Virus record (IMG/VR): IMGVR_UViG_3300033067_000911
Location: 1-28,843 of that record
From: a virus
Taxonomy: Duplodnaviria; Caudoviricetes
Length of the DNA stretch: 28,843 nt
Reading direction: 5' to 3' (one strand)
Under the pieces are notes generated by a model that saw only the letters and a program-made list of their open reading frames with translations, ran no database searches and was not told the DNA's origin. Below are positions 1 to 28,379 of this stretch, piece by piece (position 1 is the stretch's first letter; every line of letters starts with the position of its first letter). Position numbers and translations under genes: made by a program.

Positions 1-71
1 GGGCTGTCGTTGTTGCCGCCTTGCAGGCTGTGGCGGTTCATCAGTAGCGCAATGTCTCGGTCTGTCAGCAT
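1..71 (-). CDS. Cassette A ORF, 5' part only (MLTDRDIALLMNRHSLQGGNNDS...), hypothetical
   Basis: ATG at 71 preceded by AGGAG; frame stays open to the window edge; same position relative to attC as the other cassette ORFs. Confidence 0.65.
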   Translation of the reverse strand, partial: MLTDRDIALLMNRHSLQGGNNDS

Positions 72-100
72 TCCTAGCTCCTATCGCCTTTCCACCGGCC

Positions 101-165
101 GGCTAACACCTCGTTCGAGGTGGACCTCCCCCTAGCGGCTCGGCCACTCAACTCGAACGTTAGGC
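101..165 (+). repeat. attC site 1 (65 bp)
   Basis: R'' GGCTAAC, 5-nt spacer, L'' GTTCGAG ... L' CTCAAC, 6-nt spacer, R' GTTAGGC; L'' has one extra C relative to L'. Confidence 0.88.
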
Positions 166-462
166 CCTGCGGTTGCGAATGGCCGCTTCCTTGCGCGCCA
201 TCCACAGCGGATCGTCCACAGTCCACGCGGCGTCCCAGATCACCTCGATCGCCGGGTGGTTCTGCGGCAGCGCCCAGGTCGCAAGGCCGAGCAGTCGGTT
301 TGCCATCCACTCGCGTGGCCGGCTGCGCTGGAACGAATGCGGGCTTCCAGGCCTCCGCACAACGTCCAAGCTCAGCACCAGCGGGCCAATGAACAGCACG
401 CGCCCCGCGTCGGGATCGCGCCGGAACTTGAGGCGCCAGCGCTTCTGAAAGTGGTACACCAT
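160..462 (-). CDS. Cassette B hypothetical protein (100 aa)
   Basis: ATG at 462 with GGAGAGG RBS; TAA stop lies inside R' of attC1. Confidence 0.75.
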   Translation of the reverse strand: MVYHFQKRWRLKFRRDPDAGRVLFIGPLVLSLDVVRRPGSPHSFQRSRPREWMANRLLGLATWALPQNHPAIEVIWDAAWTVDDPLWMARKEAAIRNRRA

Positions 463-478
463 CGTTGTCCTCTCCGTT

Positions 479-513
479 GCCAAGCGGGCGGCCGCTCAAG
501 TCAAACGTTGGGC
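479..513 (+). repeat. attC right half-site (L'-R' only)
   Basis: CTCAAG-TCAAAC-GTTGGGC; 479-509 is identical to 1708-1738; no R''/L'' arm to its left. Confidence 0.8.
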
Positions 514-890
514 GTCTCAGGCACCCAGCGAGCAACGCCACCGTCGTCGAACTGGATGCGTTTGAAGTCCTTCAGCCGCAGGAACGCGCAGCCCCACGGC
601 GCGTGGAAGTGCTGTGCCACCATGCCGACGTGGATCATCAACTCGGGCAGCAGCACAGCGCCGAAGCGCTGCATGAACTCCGCGCCCGCGAACTTGCCGC
701 GCCTCTCTTTGCGAAGCCCGGCCATGAAATCTTCGAACTGGTCTGCGTTCCTCGGCGCGGCTTGAAGCGCGTCGGGGAAGATCGTGTGGTAGCTCTCCAG
801 CAGGCGCGTGAGTTCGGCCAGGCTCTTGCACTTCGGCAGCGCCTCGTTGTAGTCGCTGGCCTGGTCGCTTGTGTAGCTGATCGGCTTCAT
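501..890 (-). CDS. Cassette C hypothetical protein (129 aa)
   Basis: ATG with GAGGA RBS; reads through R' (ends PNV) and stops in the L'-R' spacer. Confidence 0.8.
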   Translation of the reverse strand: MKPISYTSDQASDYNEALPKCKSLAELTRLLESYHTIFPDALQAAPRNADQFEDFMAGLRKERRGKFAGAEFMQRFGAVLLPELMIHVGMVAQHFHAPWGCAFLRLKDFKRIQFDDGGVARWVPETPNV

Positions 891-914
891 TCAGTCCTCT
901 GTTTATTCGTCGCC

Positions 915-1002
915 GCCCAACCCTTCACTCCAGCGGACCCCGTGTAGCACTGCGCATCACCACCGTGCGCGGGCGGGGTCCGCTGAGTTCCAAACGTTAG
1001 GC
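915..1002 (+). repeat. attC site 3 (88 bp)
   Basis: GCCCAAC-CCTTC-ACTCCAG-CGGACCCCG ... CGGGGTCCG-CTGAGT-TCCAAAC-GTTAGGC; long stem, extra C in L''. Confidence 0.9.
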
Positions 1003-1257
1003 GTCAATACCAGCGGCCTGGAACAGCACGCCTGCAGCAGCCTTCTCGGCCTCTTCAAGCGTCGCGCGCTCGAAGGCCGCTTCCGCCTTGTCCCAGCCGT
1101 CGTCGTCGTCGCTGAAGCCAAGCGCGAAGCTGCACACGCCGAGGCCGGGCGGCTCGGCGTACCAGCGCAGCTCGGGCGCGCCCGTCTCGTCGCTCCGGTC
1201 GATCTTGGCTAGCAGTTGCCCGTACTTCGCGCTCTCGAACAGCTTCGCAAATGCCAT
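997..1257 (-). CDS. Cassette D hypothetical acidic protein (86 aa)
   Basis: ATG with AGGAG RBS; TAA inside R' of attC3. Confidence 0.85.
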   Translation of the reverse strand: MAFAKLFESAKYGQLLAKIDRSDETGAPELRWYAEPPGLGVCSFALGFSDDDDGWDKAEAAFERATLEEAEKAAAGVLFQAAGIDA

Positions 1258-1276
1258 GTCCTTCTCCTGCCACCGC

Positions 1277-1334
1277 GCCTAACTGGGCGCTCAAGCGGGA
1301 CGCCTATCGGCGCCCCTTAGCTTCGACGTTAGGC
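1277..1334 (+). repeat. attC site 4 (58 bp)
   Basis: GCCTAAC-TGGGC-GCTCAAG-CGGGACGCC-TATC-GGCGCCC-CTTAGC-TTCGAC-GTTAGGC; classic short 59-base-element architecture. Confidence 0.92.
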
Positions 1335-1628
1335 CTCAAGAGCTAGTCGTGCGCGGCGCGTCATTTCCAGAACCGCGGCGCGTTGCCAGTCTCGATCATC
1401 CGGGCCATCGGTGCGGCCAGAAAGCGTGTCGCTCCCGTACTGGCGCACGGAGTCGAGTGCATCGCGCAGCCGCTTGATCTCGGCGCGAGCCTCGGTAAGT
1501 TCGCGGGCAGGAGTCAAAGCGGCATGCATCGCGCCTGCGCCACCAAGCGGCACTGCGGCATCTGTCAACTGGACGCAATACCCAACTTGCATCGCGTGCA
1601 GTGCCTTCAAGTCAATGTCACCAGCCAT
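1329..1628 (-). CDS. Cassette E hypothetical protein with coiled-coil segment (99 aa)
   Basis: ATG with AAGGA RBS; TAA inside R' of attC4; heptad-like segment ELTEARAEIKRLRDAL. Confidence 0.8.
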   Translation of the reverse strand: MAGDIDLKALHAMQVGYCVQLTDAAVPLGGAGAMHAALTPARELTEARAEIKRLRDALDSVRQYGSDTLSGRTDGPDDRDWQRAAVLEMTRRARLALEA

Positions 1629-1655
1629 CGCTATGTCCTTTCGCTCCGGCTACAC

Positions 1656-1742
1656 GCCTAACCCTTCCTTCGAGCGGACCGCCTATAGGTTGGTTCGCTC
1701 GCTCACCGCCAAGCGGGCGGCCGCTCAAGTCAAACGTTCGGC
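1656..1742 (+). repeat. attC site 5 (87 bp)
   Basis: GCCTAAC-CCTTC-CTTCGAG-CGGACCGCC ... GGCGGCCG-CTCAAG-TCAAAC-GTTCGGC; extra C and extra A on the left arm. Confidence 0.9.
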
Positions 1743-1743
1743 C

Positions 1744-2100
1744 TCAGCCCACCGCGAAGGTGTTGCCGTCGCCAGCGCCGACCGGAGTCAGTCGAGGCGC
1801 GTAGCTGTCCTGCACCACGTCGCCCATGTAGCGCGTGTGCAGTCCGCTCGGGGCCTGGCACGTCACGTAGGGCGGCGCGTGCGGGTAGTCGGCGCTGCCG
1901 GGGCTGCTCACCCAGAACGGCTGATACGGCGCCCAGGCCGGCGGGTACCGGTCGATGATGACGGGCGTCGTCATCGGCAGGCGGGGCGCGAACAACTCGG
2001 CCAGTTGCGCATACAGGTCGCGCGCCTCGTCGATGGTCATCGTCACGTCCTTTCCGCCGCGCGGCGTCAGCACGATCTTGGTCAACTTCAGCTTGTCCAC
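1744..2100 (-). CDS. Cassette F hypothetical protein, Pro-rich C-half (118 aa)
   Basis: GTG with AAGGA RBS; TGA lies just outside R' of attC5 (1-nt gap). Confidence 0.8.
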   Translation of the reverse strand: MDKLKLTKIVLTPRGGKDVTMTIDEARDLYAQLAELFAPRLPMTTPVIIDRYPPAWAPYQPFWVSSPGSADYPHAPPYVTCQAPSGLHTRYMGDVVQDSYAPRLTPVGAGDGNTFAVG

Positions 2101-2127
2101 AGTCTTCCTTTCGCTACGGCCCCAGAG

Positions 2128-2197
2128 GCCGAACTAGTTAATCGAGCGGGCCCGCCGAGGCAGGGCCGCGCTTCGTGTTAGCTTCAAAACGTTAGGC
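2128..2197 (+). repeat. attC site 6, degenerate or hybrid (70 bp)
   Basis: R'' GCCGAAC ... R' GTTAGGC with a GC-rich central hairpin, but L'' (AATCGAG) and L' (TTAGC) do not pair. Confidence 0.7.
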
Positions 2198-2272
2198 ATC
2201 AACCCACGCGCCACCGCCTAACTCATCGCTTGAGGCGGGACCCTTCGTCGGCGGGTGTCTTCGGTGTGTCAT
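2192..2272 (-). CDS. 26-aa mini ORF (MTHRRHPPTKGPASSDELGGGAWVDA) reading through the attC half-site
   Basis: ATG overlaps the upstream TGA (ATGA 2269-2272); TAA inside R' of attC6; below the ORF-track size cutoff. Confidence 0.5.
   Translation of the reverse strand: MTHRRHPPTKGPASSDELGGGAWVDA
2216..2243 (+). repeat. attC left half-site (R''-L'' only), terminal site of the array
   Basis: GCCTAAC-TCATC-GCTTGAG-GCGGGACCC; no matching L'/R' downstream. Confidence 0.65.
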
Positions 2273-2436
2273 GGCTTCCTCTTCGTTGCAACAGTCACGA
2301 ACTGCGCCCACTCCCCGCGCTGCACCGCCTCTTTGATCGCTGCGTGTACCTCACGAGGGGCGAAGATGCCGCGTAGCTCAGGGTCGCGGCGCTGGCGGTA
2401 CTCGGCGCTGCGCTGGCTTTGGGGCTTTGCTTGCAT
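2269..2436 (-). CDS. Small basic hypothetical protein (55 aa), possibly DNA-binding
   Basis: ATG just after the upstream stop; QRSAEYRQRR basic helix. Confidence 0.6.
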   Translation of the reverse strand: MQAKPQSQRSAEYRQRRDPELRGIFAPREVHAAIKEAVQRGEWAQFVTVATKRKP

Positions 2437-2437
2437 G

Positions 2438-2731
2438 TCAGATGCCGCTAGGTCGCGCAAGCTCTGCAGCGATCTTTACCGAAGCGTCGAAAAGTCTGCG
2501 CAGGCGGGCCAGCTCTGCCTGAGCGTCACGCGCCATCACGCGCCACTCTTCGCAGCCCTTCTCCAGCCATTCGAGGTGGTCAATGGCTCCCGTCACGACA
2601 TCAAGCCGCACGGTCACCCACTCCGCGTGCGGGTTCGGATGCGGCCCCTTTGGGATCGAATCGGCCAACGCCTTGCGAAGCTCGCTCGCGTCCCCGGTGT
2701 CGGTGACAAGGGCCTGTTCGGCCCCGCTCAT
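2438..2731 (-). CDS. Hypothetical protein (97 aa)
   Basis: ATGA-coupled to the upstream gene; coiled-coil-like C-terminus. Confidence 0.7.
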   Translation of the reverse strand: MSGAEQALVTDTGDASELRKALADSIPKGPHPNPHAEWVTVRLDVVTGAIDHLEWLEKGCEEWRVMARDAQAELARLRRLFDASVKIAAELARPSGI

Positions 2732-2934
2732 TGTGCACCCCCAACCGGCAGACGGTCGGTGCGGTAGCTGATGATCGCATCCCGTTCGTCGCCCTCCTCG
2801 GCGATCAGGTACTCGCGGGCTTCTTCTTCGGTGCAGCCAGTTGCCTTGACAACGCGCTCAACGCGGACGGCTTCTGTCCAGTTCTTGCGGTTGCTGACCC
2901 ACGGCGCGTAGAGGCTGACTTGTTGGGTGCTCAT
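2728..2934 (-). CDS. Small protein with UBA/NAC-like three-helix motif (68 aa)
   Basis: GGAGAG RBS; VVKATGCTEEEAREYLIAEEGDERDAII resembles the NAC C-terminal / EF-Ts N-terminal UBA-like pattern. Confidence 0.6.
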   Translation of the reverse strand: MSTQQVSLYAPWVSNRKNWTEAVRVERVVKATGCTEEEAREYLIAEEGDERDAIISYRTDRLPVGGAQ

Positions 2935-2964
2935 TTTCTCTCTCCGTTGCGTTGCTATGCCTCT

Positions 2965-2992
2965 ACTATAGGCGTGTTGCGCGGAACGTCAA
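2965..2992 (-). promoter_or_regulatory. Sigma70-like promoter pointing toward the cassette array
   Basis: Minus strand TTGACG-16 nt-TATAGT in an intergenic gap, upstream of the RBS and ATG at 2934. Confidence 0.7.
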
Positions 2993-2998
2993 GGGGAG

Positions 2999-3469
2999 TT
3001 ACAACTTTGCGCGTTGATAGCCTTCGAGCACGTCGGCCGCTTCGTCCATGAGCATTGCGTCCATGTTCACGTCCATGGCATGCGCGGCCTTGCGCAGCCG
3101 CGCGACTAGCGTTCCGTTGTGGTCACCTGGCGGGCCTCCGCCGCATGTCACGCGCTGCTCATCCGCGCTTTGCTCGCGCAGGTCGATCAGCGCTTGCTGC
3201 ATACGGTTCCAGTAGTTGATCGCCTCGCGCCGCGTGGCCCTGTTGAATCCGGGGTCCCTTGGCGAGTACATCGGGCATTGCTGCTCGTAAGGCCAGCCCT
3301 TGCCGACAGCAAGCTCGGCGCGGTCGCAGTTGACCATCTTCGTTATCGTGCCTTCGCGATCAACCTCCCACAGTGACGGCGGACCGCCACAGCAGGCGCA
3401 GTTCAGCGCCCTTGGGTCTTCGGGGCGCCATTCAAGCGGCTCGATCGTCTCTTGCCATCCGGTGCTCAT
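2999..3469 (-). CDS. Lar-like (restriction alleviation family) zinc-finger protein
   Basis: N-terminal LNCACCGG and TRREAINYWNR, similar to the Lar-family pattern (CPFCGG ... EAIxxWNRR). Confidence 0.55.
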   Translation of the reverse strand: MSTGWQETIEPLEWRPEDPRALNCACCGGPPSLWEVDREGTITKMVNCDRAELAVGKGWPYEQQCPMYSPRDPGFNRATRREAINYWNRMQQALIDLREQSADEQRVTCGGGPPGDHNGTLVARLRKAAHAMDVNMDAMLMDEAADVLEGYQRAKL

Positions 3470-3681
3470 GAGTAGTCCTCGTCAAACGTGCAGGATGTGT
3501 GCCACTGCTTGCCGCATCGCGGGCACTCCATGATGTCAACCTCGTCAGTCACGCCGCAGCAATCGACGCAGCGAGGCTCCGGGCATCGATTCTTGGCCGG
3601 CTGGCAAAGCTCAGGCTGCTCCGATGCGTGCAGCGAACAGCCGCCTACGATCCGATGGCCGATGTACTGTTTCTGTGTCAT
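3466..3681 (-). CDS. Cys-rich hypothetical protein (71 aa)
   Basis: CVDC and CPRC motifs; ATGA coupling at both ends. Confidence 0.7.
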   Translation of the reverse strand: MTQKQYIGHRIVGGCSLHASEQPELCQPAKNRCPEPRCVDCCGVTDEVDIMECPRCGKQWHTSCTFDEDYS

Positions 3682-3878
3682 CGCTCAACCTCCACAAACG
3701 GCCTCACCACAGGCCGCTCCACGAGCATCCCGCACACCCCGTCCCGATGCGTCACGCTCGCATCGATCACCTCGTTTCGGCGATTCTCTGGCGGCGGAGG
3801 CTCTGCGATGCGCCAGCGGCTGCAGATGTAGCAGGCGTCGATTCTGTGGGAGGGGTGGCAAGACGCTTGGTCGATCAT
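3678..3878 (-). CDS. Hypothetical protein (66 aa)
   Basis: Start re-called at the ATGA overlap; CYIC motif. Confidence 0.6.
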   Translation of the reverse strand: MIDQASCHPSHRIDACYICSRWRIAEPPPPENRRNEVIDASVTHRDGVCGMLVERPVVRPFVEVER

Positions 3879-4090
3879 TCGAACCACCCCGCAGAAAGCC
3901 ATCGGCCGGCTCCGCCTTTTGTCGTCACGCACACCATCACGCCCAGTTCGCACTGGGCCTTGCGAACTCCAGTAACACCGCAATGGTCAGGCAGATGGTT
4001 GACTTTGCGCTCTGTCTGGTTCCACAGCTTTATTGGCCTGAGCGCGTCTCCGACCTTGATTGACTCGGCGCGCTCTCTTGTCATGGTCAT
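3875..4090 (-). CDS. Hypothetical protein, possible SH3/KOW-like barrel (71 aa)
   Basis: GAGGAG RBS; IKVGDAL motif. Confidence 0.7.
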   Translation of the reverse strand: MTMTRERAESIKVGDALRPIKLWNQTERKVNHLPDHCGVTGVRKAQCELGVMVCVTTKGGAGRWLSAGWFE

Positions 4091-4160
4091 GATGCTCTCC
4101 TCATCCTGCTACGAATCTCAGCGATGCGCGCCCTGCCTAAGGATCGCGCGGCCCGGAGTG

Positions 4161-4388
4161 CTACACGCGACTCCTGTTGTCCCAGTTCCGCATCTTGTCG
4201 AAGTTCATGCGGATTCTGTGCGTCAGGCCCGGCCACAGCGCCGGGTCAGCCTCCCGGTAGTGCCAGAAGCACAGATCGTCGATTGAGCCAGCGTTAGGGC
4301 ATCCGTGCGCCTTGCAGCGGTAGTCTGTCCGCGCCTCCGGCCTGCCGCCTGACTGCTCGTGCTCTTGCTTCGCCTGTGAATAACTCAT
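4161..4388 (-). CDS. Small CCCH-type zinc-binding protein downstream of the initiator (75 aa)
   Basis: C-x4-C ... C-x2-H; coupled to the initiator stop codon. Confidence 0.7.
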   Translation of the reverse strand: MSYSQAKQEHEQSGGRPEARTDYRCKAHGCPNAGSIDDLCFWHYREADPALWPGLTHRIRMNFDKMRNWDNRSRV

Positions 4389-5203
4389 GCTGCTTCCTTG
4401 TAACGACCCTCGACCACCTTAGCCAAGTTTCCCGGCGTCATCAGCCACTCGAAGTCGGCCCGCCACACGCGATCCTTCCCGCCCCTGCGCCCGGTCAGGA
4501 ATGGGCTTGCCTCCACAGTCTTGAAGTACCAGCGGAACCACTCCAGCCCCTCCACTGCGCCCCACTTCTCAGCCGCACAGACTTCGACCCATCTAGCCCG
4601 GGCGTGCTTCTGGCGCATGTTCGTCAGGATCCTGACCTTTGGCAAGCTCGGGCACAACTCGTGATAGGCGGAAAGCAAGTCTTGAAAAGGACACGCCGGG
4701 ACGCTGTAGGCGTCGCCTTTGGCGACAAGCGCCGTAGGCGCCTTGTATTTATCTGCTTCTGCCTCTGCCTCTGTATTGGCTCTACAGAGTTCGACAGAGT
4801 TCGACTGAGTTCTACTCTGTTCTACATCTTCTACACGTTCGGCGGCACGACGGGTGTTGATGTAACGGCGCTTTGATTCCTTGATGCTTTCCTCGTCCCT
4901 GATCGCCCTGTACTTGGCGTGGTTCAGGAGCCTCCAGCCTCCATCTATGTCCTCGATGCGGCGCCCATCGAAGTCGCGGGTACGGCTGTACTTGTCTGGG
5001 CTTTTCAGGGCCCCTAGAGCGTCCTCGCATCGATCGATGCTGACACGGGCCATGTTTGCTAGCCCGGGGATGCTGGCCCAGACTCTGCCGTGGTGGTCGG
5101 CCATGGCAAGCATGGTGATCCAGACGATGCGGGTGTGGTCAGGCTCGGCCCAGATGGTTGACGCTGTGATGCTGGAGAACAATTTCGTAAAGGTCATGCT
5201 CAT
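4385..5203 (-). CDS. Phage replication initiator (replisome-organiser-like)
   Basis: N-terminal winged-helix-like domain, low-complexity linker with DNA repeats, C-terminal WRADFEWLM...KVVEGRY motif typical of phage initiators. Confidence 0.8.
   Translation of the reverse strand: MSMTFTKLFSSITASTIWAEPDHTRIVWITMLAMADHHGRVWASIPGLANMARVSIDRCEDALGALKSPDKYSRTRDFDGRRIEDIDGGWRLLNHAKYRAIRDEESIKESKRRYINTRRAAERVEDVEQSRTQSNSVELCRANTEAEAEADKYKAPTALVAKGDAYSVPACPFQDLLSAYHELCPSLPKVRILTNMRQKHARARWVEVCAAEKWGAVEGLEWFRWYFKTVEASPFLTGRRGGKDRVWRADFEWLMTPGNLAKVVEGRYKEAA
4752..4840. repeat. Iteron-like tandem repeats inside the initiator gene (putative origin)
   Basis: TC(T/G)AC-containing units at 4781, 4791, 4801, 4811, 4821 and 4830, next to TCTGCY hexamer repeats. 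Confidence 0.65.
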
Positions 5204-11835: not shown

Positions 11836-11930
11836 AACGCACGCGCCTATGCCCAGTTGGGAAGCCGCTGCTGTGGCGCCTGGCCGATTGGGCGTGGCGC
11901 GTGGTGTTCTTTTTCAGGGGGCCGCGATGA
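11832..11930 (+). CDS. 32-aa hypothetical peptide
   Basis: AAGGAGG RBS; GTGA and ATGA overlaps at both ends. Confidence 0.5.
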
Positions 11931-12133
11931 TCAAACTAACGCCACGCCAGAAGGAGGTGTTCTCCTTCATCAGAAAGCACATCGGCAACGCTGGCCGGCC
12001 GCCGACGCGACGGGAGATTGCCGATCACTTCGGCTGGTCCTCCGCGAACGCTGCCGAGGATCACCTACGAGCGCTGAGCCGCAAAGGCGCGATCACGATT
12101 GATGCGGGAAAGTCTAGGGGGATTGTGCTGTGA
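11927..12133 (+). CDS. LexA DNA-binding-domain-only protein (68 aa)
   Basis: LTPRQKEV...[29 protein letters not shown]....GKSRGIVL follows the LexA N-terminal domain; no linker or peptidase domain. Confidence 0.88.
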
Positions 12134-17222: not shown

Positions 17223-17561
17223 ATGCTCTGCACCGCACTGGCTATCGGACTGCACCTCGGGACGTATCACTTCGACGCATCCAAGGGTTACAACGACTTC
17301 AATCCCGGCGCCTACGTCGTCTGCGACGGGTGGACTGCTGGAGCTTACCGGAACAGCGAGCGCAAACCGTCTGTCTACGCCGGGAAAACCTTCGCCTTCA
17401 GCGGCTTCGATGTCACCATCGGCGCGGTTACGGGCTACAGGCGCGCAGCGCTCACGCCGATGCTTGTTCCGTCGCACAAGTTCGAAAACGGCGTGCGTCT
17501 GAGCCTTCTTTTGCCTGCAGAGAAGGGAGGCGGTGGAGTACATCTGTCGTGGGAGTTCTAG
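17223..17561 (+). CDS. Putative small outer-membrane beta-barrel (PagP-like motifs), moron (112 aa)
   Basis: GGAGG RBS; TYHF, NPG, GAYRNS, SVYAG, GAVTGY motifs; ends VHLSWEF (beta-signal-like); opposite strand to its neighbours. Confidence 0.65.
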   Translation: MLCTALAIGLHLGTYHFDASKGYNDFNPGAYVVCDGWTAGAYRNSERKPSVYAGKTFAFSGFDVTIGAVTGYRRAALTPMLVPSHKFENGVRLSLLLPAEKGGGGVHLSWEF

Positions 17562-25212: not shown

Positions 25213-25829
25213 TTCACCACCCGCACCTGTAGAGAGCCGCCGCCCTGCCGCATCGTTGAGCGGTTCAGGCCTGAAATCGCGGACTTGAGCATCCCGAACC
25301 AACCATTGATGCGCTCGTCAGCCCCGAGGAACGGGGCGCTTTCCATCAGGGCGGCATAGAGCAGAACACCGGGGGCATTGGTCAGCAGCCAATTCGTGTC
25401 AGCGTCAGCACTGAACGCCGTTAACGCCTTGTAGTAGTCCAGCGTATAGGACGAAGCTGAGCCGGGCACCTTGATCGCGTTGTCAAGGTAGGTGTACTCC
25501 ACCGGAAGGGCTGTGCTGTTAGCCACTTCCGAGAACCGCTCCGGCGGAATGTAGCCTAGGCTCCACGAGGCCCCGTTACTCGATACAGCGACGCGGATGG
25601 GCTCCAGAAAACCGGTCGGGAACGCGATGGAGCCTGCGGAGATGGTGCCCGTAGCCTGCTCCTGCATCGCCGGGATGCGCAACGGCTGCGACGGGTAGGG
25701 CATGTCCGCGCCGTAGTTGATGCGCTGCATCCCGAGCGTGATGAAGTCCGGGATGTACGAAGTCAGGTCGGCGCGGTTCAGGTAGCTCGCTACCGCCGTT
25801 TTCAGTTCCCCATAGGTGGTGATGCTCAT
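25209..25829 (-). CDS. Head-tail adaptor protein (206 aa)
   Basis: ITTYGELKTAVASYLNRADLT..IPDFI and TNWLLTNAP..LLYAAL.E..PFL motifs. Confidence 0.82.
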   Translation of the reverse strand: MSITTYGELKTAVASYLNRADLTSYIPDFITLGMQRINYGADMPYPSQPLRIPAMQEQATGTISAGSIAFPTGFLEPIRVAVSSNGASWSLGYIPPERFSEVANSTALPVEYTYLDNAIKVPGSASSYTLDYYKALTAFSADADTNWLLTNAPGVLLYAALMESAPFLGADERINGWFGMLKSAISGLNRSTMRQGGGSLQVRVVK

Positions 25830-26359
25830 AGCTCACTTGGCGAAACGAGCACGACGAAACCGCCCGGCGTGCGTTGGAATGACTGGAGGCAGAAGCGGTC
25901 CGTGATCTTCGGGAGCCACCACTCGGGAGGCTCTTGGATCAGGTGCGCATTCCTGCCGTCGGGGAGTGTTTTCCCGGCCGGGACGCAGGAGACAGTGAAT
26001 AGCCCGACACGGAGCGTGAGGCGCTTCAAGTCATCAAGCACCTCGAACAGGCACTCTGGCTCAATGTGCTCAAGGACATCGATGCAGGCCACCATCTCCG
26101 CTGGCTCAGGGGCCTTTGCGTACTGAGGAATGGCGGGCTCATACGGGATGTAGTTGAACGCCGACTTCGCCAGCCGTTTCTCGTTGATCGTTCGGATCAG
26201 CGTGAGCCTGGAGCCAGCCCCGTAGTCCAGAAGCGTCTTGACGCCGTGCGAGTCGATGACCTTCGCCACCATGGGTGCGTACTCTGCGGAGGCGACCCCG
26301 TAGAGGGTCGTCTCGTGCATATGCCGCTGCTGTTCGCGGTATTCAGGGCTGATCAGCAC
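25826..26359 (-). CDS. Class I SAM-dependent methyltransferase (about 177 aa)
   Basis: LLDYGAG motif I; CIDVLEHIEP; DGRNAHL. Confidence 0.88.
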   Translation of the reverse strand: MLISPEYREQQRHMHETTLYGVASAEYAPMVAKVIDSHGVKTLLDYGAGSRLTLIRTINEKRLAKSAFNYIPYEPAIPQYAKAPEPAEMVACIDVLEHIEPECLFEVLDDLKRLTLRVGLFTVSCVPAGKTLPDGRNAHLIQEPPEWWLPKITDRFCLQSFQRTPGGFVVLVSPSEL

Positions 26360-27024
26360 GGGGCTATTGCCTTTCGATACTCTGCCCACCACTCGGAAGA
26401 CCTTTCAGCCTCGGAATACTCCGGGAAGCACGGGGTTCCAACGGTGTAGTGATTGAGCTTTGCTTCAGCGTCCGGGTATTCTAAGACGAGGTGGTTCCAC
26501 TCGCGCGGGAGTTCCCCGATGCGGTCATCCTCCAGCCATTCGAACCGGTGCAGGTGAGAGCCTTTGGCTTTCTCGACGTAGGAGGGCGTCAAAACCCGGT
26601 TTCTGGCGTTCCCGCAGGCCCACAGCATGACGCTTGACCAGTTCTTGCGGGGATAGTCCTCGTTCTTGGCCCCGAGATACTTGGTCGGGTGCTTGGTCTT
26701 GTAGTCGTGCTTGACGACCTTCACAGCAGAGTAAAGGTCGCGCTCGGCCCAGAGTTCGGCGATGTCTGCCTTTACGATCATGTCGCCATCCACAAAGATC
26801 GCGTGCCCAGAAAACCCCATCATCCAAGGGATGAGAAACCGCGAGTAGATGAAGGCGTTTGACCCGTCTGTATGGGTCTCCTCGTACTGGCGGAGCATCC
26901 CCAAATGCAGAGGGTGGAATGACACGGGCACCGATGCCCGCTCGATGATGGATTGGCAGCAGACGTGATACGCCACTGCCTCACGGGGGTCGAAGCCTAC
27001 GAAAACAGGGATTGTCTCAACCAT
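26353..27024 (-). CDS. GT-A fold glycosyltransferase (GT8-like, 223 aa)
   Basis: FVGFDPRE, SRFLIP, FVDGDM (DxD), RKNWSS, EWNHL and HYTVGTP motifs. Confidence 0.88.
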   Translation of the reverse strand: MVETIPVFVGFDPREAVAYHVCCQSIIERASVPVSFHPLHLGMLRQYEETHTDGSNAFIYSRFLIPWMMGFSGHAIFVDGDMIVKADIAELWAERDLYSAVKVVKHDYKTKHPTKYLGAKNEDYPRKNWSSVMLWACGNARNRVLTPSYVEKAKGSHLHRFEWLEDDRIGELPREWNHLVLEYPDAEAKLNHYTVGTPCFPEYSEAERSSEWWAEYRKAIAPC

Positions 27025-28379
27025 TGCTTGATGCCGTCGAGTTCCCACTGCCCGAGCTTCTTTTGCCGGAACAGCTTGACGCAGGAGTACCAAGGGAGCG
27101 AATCCCCGGAGGCCCCGTAGCGCCATTGGGATGTTTTGGGGATGCCGGCAGCACAAGGAACACCCAGAGCGCCGGCCACGTGAACGGCCGTGCTCTGCAT
27201 CGCCACTACAGCGTCAAGCGAGGCAAACAGCGCAGCCGTCTCGTCATAGTCTCTTGCAATGGTTGCTTGCGGATACTGCACCAAGTCAATATCCGGGTAC
27301 TTGGCCCGAAACTCGGTGATTTCCTGAGCGGCGTCCTTGTATTGGAGGCTGACCCACTTTGCCGGGATGGTGCGCATGATCTGCGCCATTTCCTCGTGGC
27401 TCCACCTCCGATACATCGCGGCGGTTTCCTTCAGCCCCCCGGTCCACGCGATGCCGATTACGGGTTTACCCTTGTCCTTCCACAGCGCCTTCCACATGAG
27501 CACGCGCTCGGGGTCTGCTTTGAGGAACGGAGTGCCGGGGAAGTCTTCCGCCTTCTGGCGGAACAGTGCCCCCACTTGCATGGCAGCGATGGAGTAATCG
27601 ACCTTCTGGTCTTCCTCGGCCCAGTTCAGAACCTTGGCGCTGCGGGTGCCGTAGACCTTCGCCTCGGGGAATGACCGTTGGAACAGGTTAGCCAGCCGAG
27701 CGTCGCAGTCGATGATGACTTTCCCGGCACGCTTGATCGCATCTGGGATCATCGAAGCGGCGCATACTTCGTCGCCGATGCCCTGTTCTCCGAAGATAAC
27801 GACCGATCCACCGGGTTCGCCATGCCAAGTCGGCTCGCCCCCGTAGTTCCACGCAATACGCTGCGGAGACCCGACGGAAGCCTCGTACAGCCGCCATCCT
27901 TCTTTCCACTCTCCCGAGGCCAAGAGGCAAAGCCCCATGTTGTGACGTGACTTGAGGTGCTCGGGGTCGATCTTGAGCGCCTTTTCGCTGAACTGGCGCG
28001 CCTTGTCGAAATCTCCCATCTGGAGATGGACCGCGGCCAGGTTCGTGTAGATCGTCAGCCGCGTGTCGTCGTCCCCGGCTTTGAGTTGGGTCAGTGCTCG
28101 GGCATAGCACGCCTCAGCCTCGGCCATCCGCCACAGGGTATCGCAGCACTTCCCGAGGTTGATCCACCCCACAGGATTGGACGGGTGCGCCGCCGTGATC
28201 TGCTTGCAGACCTGATAGGCCAATGCAGGGTTGCCTTGCTTCTCCAGCATGAACGATGCGAGCAACAAACCCTTCGGGTCGTTCGGCTCTTCCGACAGAT
28301 GCGGCGACAGGATGCGCCACGCATCCGGATACTTGCCGGACTCCGCGAGTTCTCGCGCTTCGTTCAGGTCTGCCGCCAA
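26997..28379 (-). CDS. TPR-repeat + GT-B (GT9-like) glycosyltransferase (460 aa)
   Basis: N-terminal TPRs; GWRLYE, EQGIGDE, IGIAWTG, SLQY, HVAGALG and WRYG...PWY...LFRQ motifs. Confidence 0.88.
   Translation of the reverse strand: MAADLNEARELAESGKYPDAWRILSPHLSEEPNDPKGLLLASFMLEKQGNPALAYQVCKQITAAHPSNPVGWINLGKCCDTLWRMAEAEACYARALTQLKAGDDDTRLTIYTNLAAVHLQMGDFDKARQFSEKALKIDPEHLKSRHNMGLCLLASGEWKEGWRLYEASVGSPQRIAWNYGGEPTWHGEPGGSVVIFGEQGIGDEVCAASMIPDAIKRAGKVIIDCDARLANLFQRSFPEAKVYGTRSAKVLNWAEEDQKVDYSIAAMQVGALFRQKAEDFPGTPFLKADPERVLMWKALWKDKGKPVIGIAWTGGLKETAAMYRRWSHEEMAQIMRTIPAKWVSLQYKDAAQEITEFRAKYPDIDLVQYPQATIARDYDETAALFASLDAVVAMQSTAVHVAGALGVPCAAGIPKTSQWRYGASGDSLPWYSCVKLFRQKKLGQWELDGIKQWLRQSLFS

Follow-up and report, generated by a model that had tools for sequence, protein, structure and literature searches.

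Integrons are usually seen as bacterial devices, with their cassettes facing a promoter at the attI site. The DNA analysed here, which we refer to as the window, is the whole of a linear virus record (G000; 28,843 bp, estimated to be 74% complete), and at its left end, downstream of a leftward replication operon, it carries an array of integron-type attC sites in which every gene lies on the strand opposite to that of the sites. This raises the question of whether such an array is a piece of host integron carried along by a phage, a decaying relic, or the working part of an integron that has adapted to phage life.

attC sites and cassette genes of the window

A first-pass annotation of the sequence had placed four intact attC sites, two half sites and one degenerate site in the array, with the top strand of the intact sites on the plus strand. 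Site geometry together with a covariance model bears out the intact sites and their polarity, and sequence inspection confirms the broken ones:

101-165, plus strand: intact attC, 47.9 bits, predicted crossover G|TT at 159|160
479-513, plus strand: only the right half of an attC (L', spacer, R'), of which 31 bp (479-509) recur exactly at 1708-1738
915-1002, plus strand: intact attC, 53.1 bits, G|TT at 996|997
1277-1334, plus strand: intact attC, 51.4 bits, G|TT at 1328|1329
1656-1742, plus strand: intact attC, 60.2 bits, G|TT at 1736|1737
2128-2197, plus strand: degenerate attC, its L' and R' separated by extra bases, 13.4 bits
2198-2215, no strand: gene-less 18-bp remnant between two sites, seen in the sequence
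2216-2243, plus strand: only the left half of an attC (R'', L''), joined to the phage backbone, the tail of the array as seen in the sequence

Each intact site consists of an R'' box (..AAC), a 5-nt spacer, an 8-nt L'' box whose position 4 is an extra C, a 7-nt L' box and an R' box (GTT..), with L'-R' spacers of 6, 7, 6 and 6 nt, and all of this geometry reads on the plus strand. A geometric scan recovered just these four sites in 28.8 kb, against 0.05 matches per window in Markov-3 simulated windows at the same threshold. The covariance model, trained only on 55 bacterial attC sites chosen with our own detector, gives the intact sites plus-strand E values of 8e-9 to 1.5e-11 (rough calibration), while its best minus-strand match in the window reaches 12.3 bits. 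Because the training sites came from our own detector, the strand convention was checked separately: it places aadA and its attC on one strand in an annotated class 1 integron and agrees with the aadA7 oligonucleotides of Qi et al. 2023 (Table S3). The lowest-energy fold of the bottom strand pairs the R and L boxes in three of the four intact sites (z -2.6 to -3.3), and the degenerate site folds no better than its shuffles (z about -0.4). The array fits a CALIN (a group of clustered attC sites with no integron integrase), with at least two attC sites on one strand within 4 kb and no intI nearby; on the left only 100 bp precede its first site before the contig breaks off, so that an intI could lie further out.

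The genes, by contrast, were annotated throughout on the minus strand, co-oriented with the replication operon, and this assignment stands: in positions 1-2300 a codon model trained on the window and on fetched viral loci calls five genes on the minus strand and no plus-strand open reading frame (ORF) with a positive coding score, and the O-like replication initiator further right is also on the minus strand. The cassette genes are as follows:

1-71, minus strand: 5' portion of a further, sixth cassette gene, with its start and ribosome-binding site visible; runs off the contig end
160-462, minus strand: cassette gene, 100 aa, TAA stop inside R'; recurs in other assemblies
501-890, minus strand: cassette gene, 129 aa; reads through R' and stops in the spacer
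997-1257, minus strand: cassette gene, 86 aa, phrog_9037, TAA inside R'
1329-1628, minus strand: cassette gene, 99 aa, TAA inside R'
1744-2100, minus strand: cassette gene, 118 aa, stop directly beside R'

All five whole genes are thus opposite to their attC sites, and the canonical co-orientation with the attC top strand is absent. Three of the stops are the TTA of the R' box read backwards, a fourth lies beside R', and one gene reads through it, so that a unit running from G|TT to G|TT carries its attC in front of its gene. Since the sixth gene, which the first-pass annotation had not listed, runs off the left end, the array is truncated there; positions 1-114 match, at 94%, a cassette gene of 163 aa from a 60.5-kb phage (L308) that is unrelated elsewhere and whose own array is inverted, and the counterpart of this gene in a 1.2-kb contig (L309) has a different C-terminus. 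Protein relatives besides the window's own record were found for 501-890 (n=9), 1329-1628 (n=34) and 1744-2100 (n=15), and about half of 1329-1628 is common to small proteins, one of them with a Lar domain elsewhere. A search of viral contigs with 501-890 returned zero matches, and none of the five genes received a function from Pfam, NCBIfam or a protein atlas. One relative of 997-1257, 46% identical, is present in locus L009; attC sites were detected neither at that locus nor in eight loci related to the replication initiator, and close kin of the window phage were therefore not found by this route.

Gene orientation in viral and bacterial arrays

To place this layout among others, the same attC pattern was run on viral contigs (128 loci, from an estimated ~280 stretches) and on bacterial genomes (135 loci, from 2 of 64 parts); 11 duplicate viral loci, 12 duplicate bacterial loci and short loci were left out, and 21 refetched or newly found viral regions were added. 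In the resulting 88 viral loci, 157 of the 181 cassettes are inverted, none is co-oriented and 24 are without a gene call, and the inverted layout is found in 54 of 54 viral contigs. The 68 bacterial loci hold 184 cassettes, 61 of which are co-oriented and 3 inverted (120 without a gene call), the inverted ones carrying, by our reading of the names, one IS30 transposase and two antitoxin-like or helix-turn-helix (HTH) genes. Swapping the codon models between the two sets leaves 134 inverted against 2 in the viral set and 62 co-oriented against 6 in the bacterial one.

A test that uses no gene caller agrees with this assignment. Matches to PHROG families were found for 34 of the 100 longest of 179 opposite-strand ORFs and for 0 of the 100 longest of 165 same-strand ORFs. 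The matched cargo includes a Lar-like protein, a PAPS reductase, two DHH phosphoesterases and an HNH nuclease, and it is enriched in DNA-modifying functions, with nine DNA methyltransferases and three Mom-like proteins among the 100 longest. Simply taking the longest ORF in each viral cassette would assign 113 to the opposite strand and 68 to the same strand; this rule is a poor test of strand in GC-rich DNA, and we therefore relied on the codon model and the PHROG matches. The fit between gene and site seen in the window recurs in the viral set: the stop codon lies in R' in 66 of the 157 cassettes and directly beside it in 26 more, and only ~20-30 bp separate the gene start from attC. BLASTP of 654 viral opposite-strand ORFs against 1278 bacterial-array ORFs, a small sample, gave zero matches, and no convincing array was seen in the first 45 kb of PH101.

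Several loci of unusual architecture emerged alongside. Single phage contigs (L289, of record G052, and L028/L049) carry a pair of arrays that have opposite polarity, both running antisense to the operon they belong to. An identical pair of 101-bp attC sites in L309 (258-358 and 715-815) has a central loop that apparently holds the ribosome-binding site and start codon of the next gene, and one bacterial array (L138:2700-8500) consists of ~15 near-regular 296-bp cassettes without called genes.

Integrases, attI sites and cassette exchange

Contigs from eight sequencing runs, which, X20 aside, come from five studies, were aligned to the array, and they support the proposal that units are exchanged at G|TT in natural variants. 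Runs with small shares (X10-X19 and X21-X23) play no part in this comparison, and a stretch of the array left uncovered by the aligned runs is not read as missing from them. In the contigs of other runs, other neighbours stand at positions 152, 156, 158, 504, 990, 1330 and 1734, and by this comparison, from which movement itself is inferred, the units with other neighbours at the core are 160-479, 504-990, 1329-1736 and 1734-2131. Cassette 160-479 has three other left neighbours (X4, X7 and X9), unit 504-990 has other flanks on both sides in X7, and in X1 and X9 the last cassette starts at 1734 behind other left neighbours. One X8 contig links cassette 1329-1736 to 160-479 through a core joint (1732-156, with six letters ambiguous), which could be the trace of a reordered array or of an excised circle. 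A whole, different attC follows position 479 in X8 and X9, identifying the half site at 479-513 of the window as a deletion that fused two cassettes, and X7 carries an intact attC at the array tail in place of the left half at 2216-2243 (joint 1747-2268). Core-aligned swaps thus stand beside arm deletions and other joints, and the arrays both shuffle and decay. The suggestion that the phage shuffles its own accessory genes through attC is accordingly supported in part: natural variants exchange units at the core, and the window phage, with three of its seven sites broken, may still be shuffling them.

Among other viral arrays, the ends of blocks that are at least 90% identical fall at the GTT core in both contigs in 22 of 49 cases, compared with 9% for a random position in one sequence. 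In one pair of loci the order is attI-like site, A, B (L288) and attI-like site, B (L012). Attached to this set are attI-like sites of other sequence types, at array heads without an adjoining intI (L288:5630-5665, L012:2580-2615, L010:4130-4165, L058, L025 and L014), and a pair of near-identical phages (L304 and L305, of records G036 and G012) with intI in mid-operon and different cassette sets, in which intI is followed by a 640-aa gene that we read as ParB-like and by an ssb-like gene.

The annotated absence of an integrase is correct for the assembled 74% of the genome, with the reservation that the contig breaks off towards the side that holds attI and intI in related phages; a leftward extension yielded only the unrelated phage L308 and the 1.2-kb contig L309, and neither attI nor intI was recovered. 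The integrases of these related phages are genuine IntI proteins: they exceed the TIGR02249 cut-off, scoring 355-479 bits, and keep the R-K-H-R-H-Y set, which we take to be the catalytic residues of IntI. From 216 viral stretches we kept the best 80 IntI matches, of which 23 had too little upstream DNA and 9 no detected attC; in all 48 loci left from these best 80 of 216, attC lies opposite to intI (majority strand), and in 44 of them attC faces away from intI while the genes point towards it. The remaining four are three class 1-like loci and one further locus, L392. L372, which turned out to be class 1, is not counted as inverted.

The attI core TGTCGnnGAATTnnnG|TT was recognised in 53 of the 63 viral intI loci that offer enough DNA, and three groups of identical attI diverge from the base after G|TT, into four, three and two different first cassettes. 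Because choosing viral IntI by likeness to a phage query favours clustering, ten of the closest bacterial matches, from 401 genomes of one order, were added to a tree of 118 IntI; 59 of the 64 viral sequences fall in one clade (FastTree support 0.99), which takes in just one of the 54 bacterial or reference sequences (L432), and this one itself has inverted cassettes and a phage integrase beside it. Two unpublished genomes among those searched carry no part of the argument. Only 4 of 45 phage intI genes have a LexA-like box upstream, so that SOS control is not supported.

Two further integrase loci are of separate interest. One phage intI (L303:10053-10150, record G047) has a short, apparently frame-breaking tandem duplication in its 5' part. 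In Virus Rctr41k (KX853513; L313:4680-9434), an array of ~128-bp attC-like sites with co-oriented genes has an IntI-like gene, annotated as xerD, upstream of it and in the same direction, an inverted-integrase layout in a phage, unlike the mirror type.

Mechanism, alternatives and biological meaning

The features to the right of the array bear on how it might be read and replicated:

2269-2934, minus strand: three ordinary early genes (codon model), between the predicted promoter and the array
2965-2992, minus strand: predicted sigma70-type promoter, 10/12, a consensus match only, pointing into the array from its tail
4385-5203, minus strand: O-like replication initiator (phrog_345, E 2e-25), in the same direction as the cassette genes

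The promoter is the sole match in positions 1-4500, where shuffles give 0.4 +/- 0.8. The window also encodes a DNA methylase, a helicase, ERF-like and NinB recombination proteins, an SU10 adaptor and an ejection protein. By record, the runs that best match it are sludge, wastewater and biofilm metagenomes, and run X20, which holds 0.97 of its words, is probably its source sample. BLASTN of 1-2300 against GenBank phages gave zero matches, and an Rfam scan of the window gave two chance matches only, neither in the array. Genes between 2427 and ~2935-2973 are replaced in relatives at points unrelated to attC, with the predicted promoter region kept, which is ordinary mosaic exchange beside the array. 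Elsewhere in the window we noted a methyltransferase, a glycosyltransferase-8-like gene and a TPR protein among virion genes (25826-28379), a stand-alone LexA DNA-binding domain gene (11927-12133), and, within the minus-strand late region, a single plus-strand gene that has a strong ribosome-binding site (17223-17561).

We consider it probable that the locus is the tail of a phage-adapted integron array, with all its genes opposite to the sites; a promoter at the tail likely reads it, and an IntI, either encoded past the contig end or acting in trans, likely shuffles it. In related phages the layout of intI, attI and cassettes is canonical for the sites, yet the genes point towards intI. Under the model that we propose, the phage early promoter at the tail would read the array, an IntI from beyond the contig end, or in trans from another phage or the host, would recombine it, and new cassettes would enter at the promoter-distal end. 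With intI and attI at the end of an early operon, and intI co-directional with it, only reversed cassettes would be expressed, so that selection would presumably build up a mirror pool. A cassette of the ordinary bacterial kind would enter antisense and, without a promoter of its own, remain silent, and host cassettes, anti-phage ones included, would be silent in the phage. Deletions in attC arms may in turn lock useful neighbours together. Furthermore, a fork leaving the O-like gene leftwards, the predicted direction of replication, would make the minus strand, that is, the attC bottom strand, the lagging template. More speculatively, cassettes may be born in such arrays, if an off-target insertion upstream of the tail, followed by deletion, gave a native gene a 5' attC; the 18-bp remnant, the half sites and multi-gene cassettes fit this speculation without proving it, and so do families found with and without attC (phrog_9037, Lar-like proteins and methyltransferases).

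Several observations weigh against this reading. Within the window, which holds neither intI nor an attI motif (a 74%-complete contig with its array head cut off), three of the seven sites are broken (two halves and one degenerate), and the lowest-energy bottom-strand fold of 101-165 leaves the R box unpaired (z -1.87). Both the promoter and the direction of replication are predictions, and core-directed recombination is deduced from natural variants rather than observed. The joint 1732-156 rests on one contig of depth 3.3 with a 76-letter side; the right arm (967-1000) of attC 915-1002 is deleted in X1, X2 and X3 (joint 966-1001); further variant joints (1317-2253, 596-815 and 1747-2268) lie away from a core, as do 27 of the 49 block ends in other viral arrays. 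A near-full intI is found in only 6 of the 116 viral records with attC that were searched (its 5' end is disrupted in one), and in only 2 of 18 records that are at least 90% complete. Nor is inversion universal: the arrays of Shewanella M16-3 and of TJE1, a CALIN of Qi et al. that we re-checked (three attC and the genes on the plus strand), are normal, and, at a phage-clade attI, L392 (2653-3900) holds a tandem duplication of a normally oriented two-gene cassette that apparently brings its own promoter, so that capture of host-type cassettes can happen. The samples themselves are biased, resting on one proteobacterial-type pattern and on the best 80 of 216 viral IntI matches to a phage query.

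The broken sites and the missing integrase could also be explained by a decaying relic of an IntI-bearing phage, reshuffled without integrase, mainly by the phage's ERF and NinB proteins acting between similar attC arms. Genes for both kinds of protein are in the window, intI was not found in the contig, two sites are halved and one is degenerate, and in relatives the arm deletions have overlaps of 3-4 letters (966-1001 and 596-815) and one joint lies within a stem (1317-2253). Four sites nevertheless keep the full asymmetric geometry, the swaps cluster at the core, where the partners have only ~6 letters in common, and homology-driven exchange would not prefer one position in one orientation; we regard this explanation as unlikely. 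Recombination of the sites by an enzyme other than IntI would account for the absence of intI from most array-bearing records, and several records do have other tyrosine recombinases adjoining the array. Those enzymes, however, score as ordinary phage integrases, many complete array-bearing records have no tyrosine recombinase at all, and the enzyme standing at attI is a true IntI, which makes this a very improbable account.

Passive carriage of host-integron cassettes, inverted by chance or reading from their own promoters, is largely refuted, and we give it scarcely any weight. Bacterial arrays do contain inverted toxin-antitoxin cassettes, which are rare and have their own promoters; like the phage cassettes they place the gene opposite to attC, but they are exceptions rather than whole arrays of promoterless genes. 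In favour of passive carriage are the high scores of the sites with a purely bacterial model, the three inverted bacterial cases, which by our reading are an IS30 transposase and antitoxin-like or HTH genes, and the captured host arrays of Vibrio prophages described in the available part of PMC9892861. Against it, all 157 gene-called viral cassettes are inverted, their cargo matches phage families and, in the small sample compared, had no BLASTP counterpart in bacterial arrays, and the gap between gene start and attC is too short for a promoter. An assembly chimera or a mis-called strand has a negligible chance of explaining the data. The contig is metagenomic and ends in a repeat-rich region; even so, bridging contigs from other studies span the junction, with the 2.2-kb point at which a chimera had been feared crossed by X20, the probable source sample (1709-3600), and independently by X4 (2087-2301), the control integrons were called correctly and the PHROG strand test agrees.

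The array is an integron variant and not an unrelated system, and the idea that it represents an undescribed system holds in part: phage attC arrays are already published, MW202573 among them is itself inverted, and it is the inversion that we did not find described. A literature search that covered few subscription journals returned no account of inversion as a systematic feature, nor any of an IntI clade of phages. Qi et al. 2023 (PMC9892861), in the portion of the text available, report 17 phage CALINs and recombination with attI1 for 5 of 6 phage attC sites tested; these arrays resemble ours as attC clusters without intI in phages, with small unknown genes and DNA methyltransferases as cargo, and that portion holds no antisense genes, cassette exchange between phages, phage attI or phage IntI clade. 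In our re-check, MW202573 has four attC sites on the minus strand and genes annotated on the plus strand. With canonical class 1 and sedentary chromosomal integrons, as far as the excerpts of PMC4889954 and PMC5371416 describe them, the window has in common attC geometry and polarity and the G|TT crossover, and its related phages have in common an intI facing away from attC and insertion at attI beside intI. It differs in that the attC bottom strand carries the genes, which run towards intI, with each attC in front of its gene, that expression is predicted to come from the far end rather than from the cassette promoter Pc, and that the cargo consists of phage accessory genes. The passages seen of Cury 2016 (PMC4889954) and PMC13323075 distinguish two integron layouts, regular and inverted-integrase, and the mirror layout is neither: the inverted-integrase integrons of Treponema (Cury 2016) likewise have intI and cassette genes co-directional, but there intI is flipped and the genes stay with attC, whereas here the genes are flipped and the relation of intI to attC is normal. 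According to the parts consulted of the respective sources, IntI recombines the folded bottom strand, which fixes the polarity of insertion at attI (10.1101/2022.09.11.507474), excision is higher when the attC bottom strand is the lagging template (PMC5371416), and integrons have lately come to be seen as reservoirs of anti-phage genes (10.1101/2024.07.02.601686). More tentatively, and with clearly less confidence than in a phage-adapted array as such, we raise the possibility of a phage integron class of its own, with its IntI clade, its attI and a mirror pool common to unrelated phages and kept apart from the anti-phage cassettes of the host by nothing but orientation, which would also make cassettes from native phage early genes.

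A reversed, equally ordered system of this kind would give phages a counter-library to that of the host, built on the same chemistry. Its reversed polarity predicts that cassettes crossing between host and phage will be silent and that phage arrays will excise often. In annotation, pipelines that assume a gene and its attC on one strand would give each phage gene the wrong site. Finally, families that occur with and without attC offer a handle on how cassettes are made, and phage genomes, if the model holds, would be a place to watch cassette birth.

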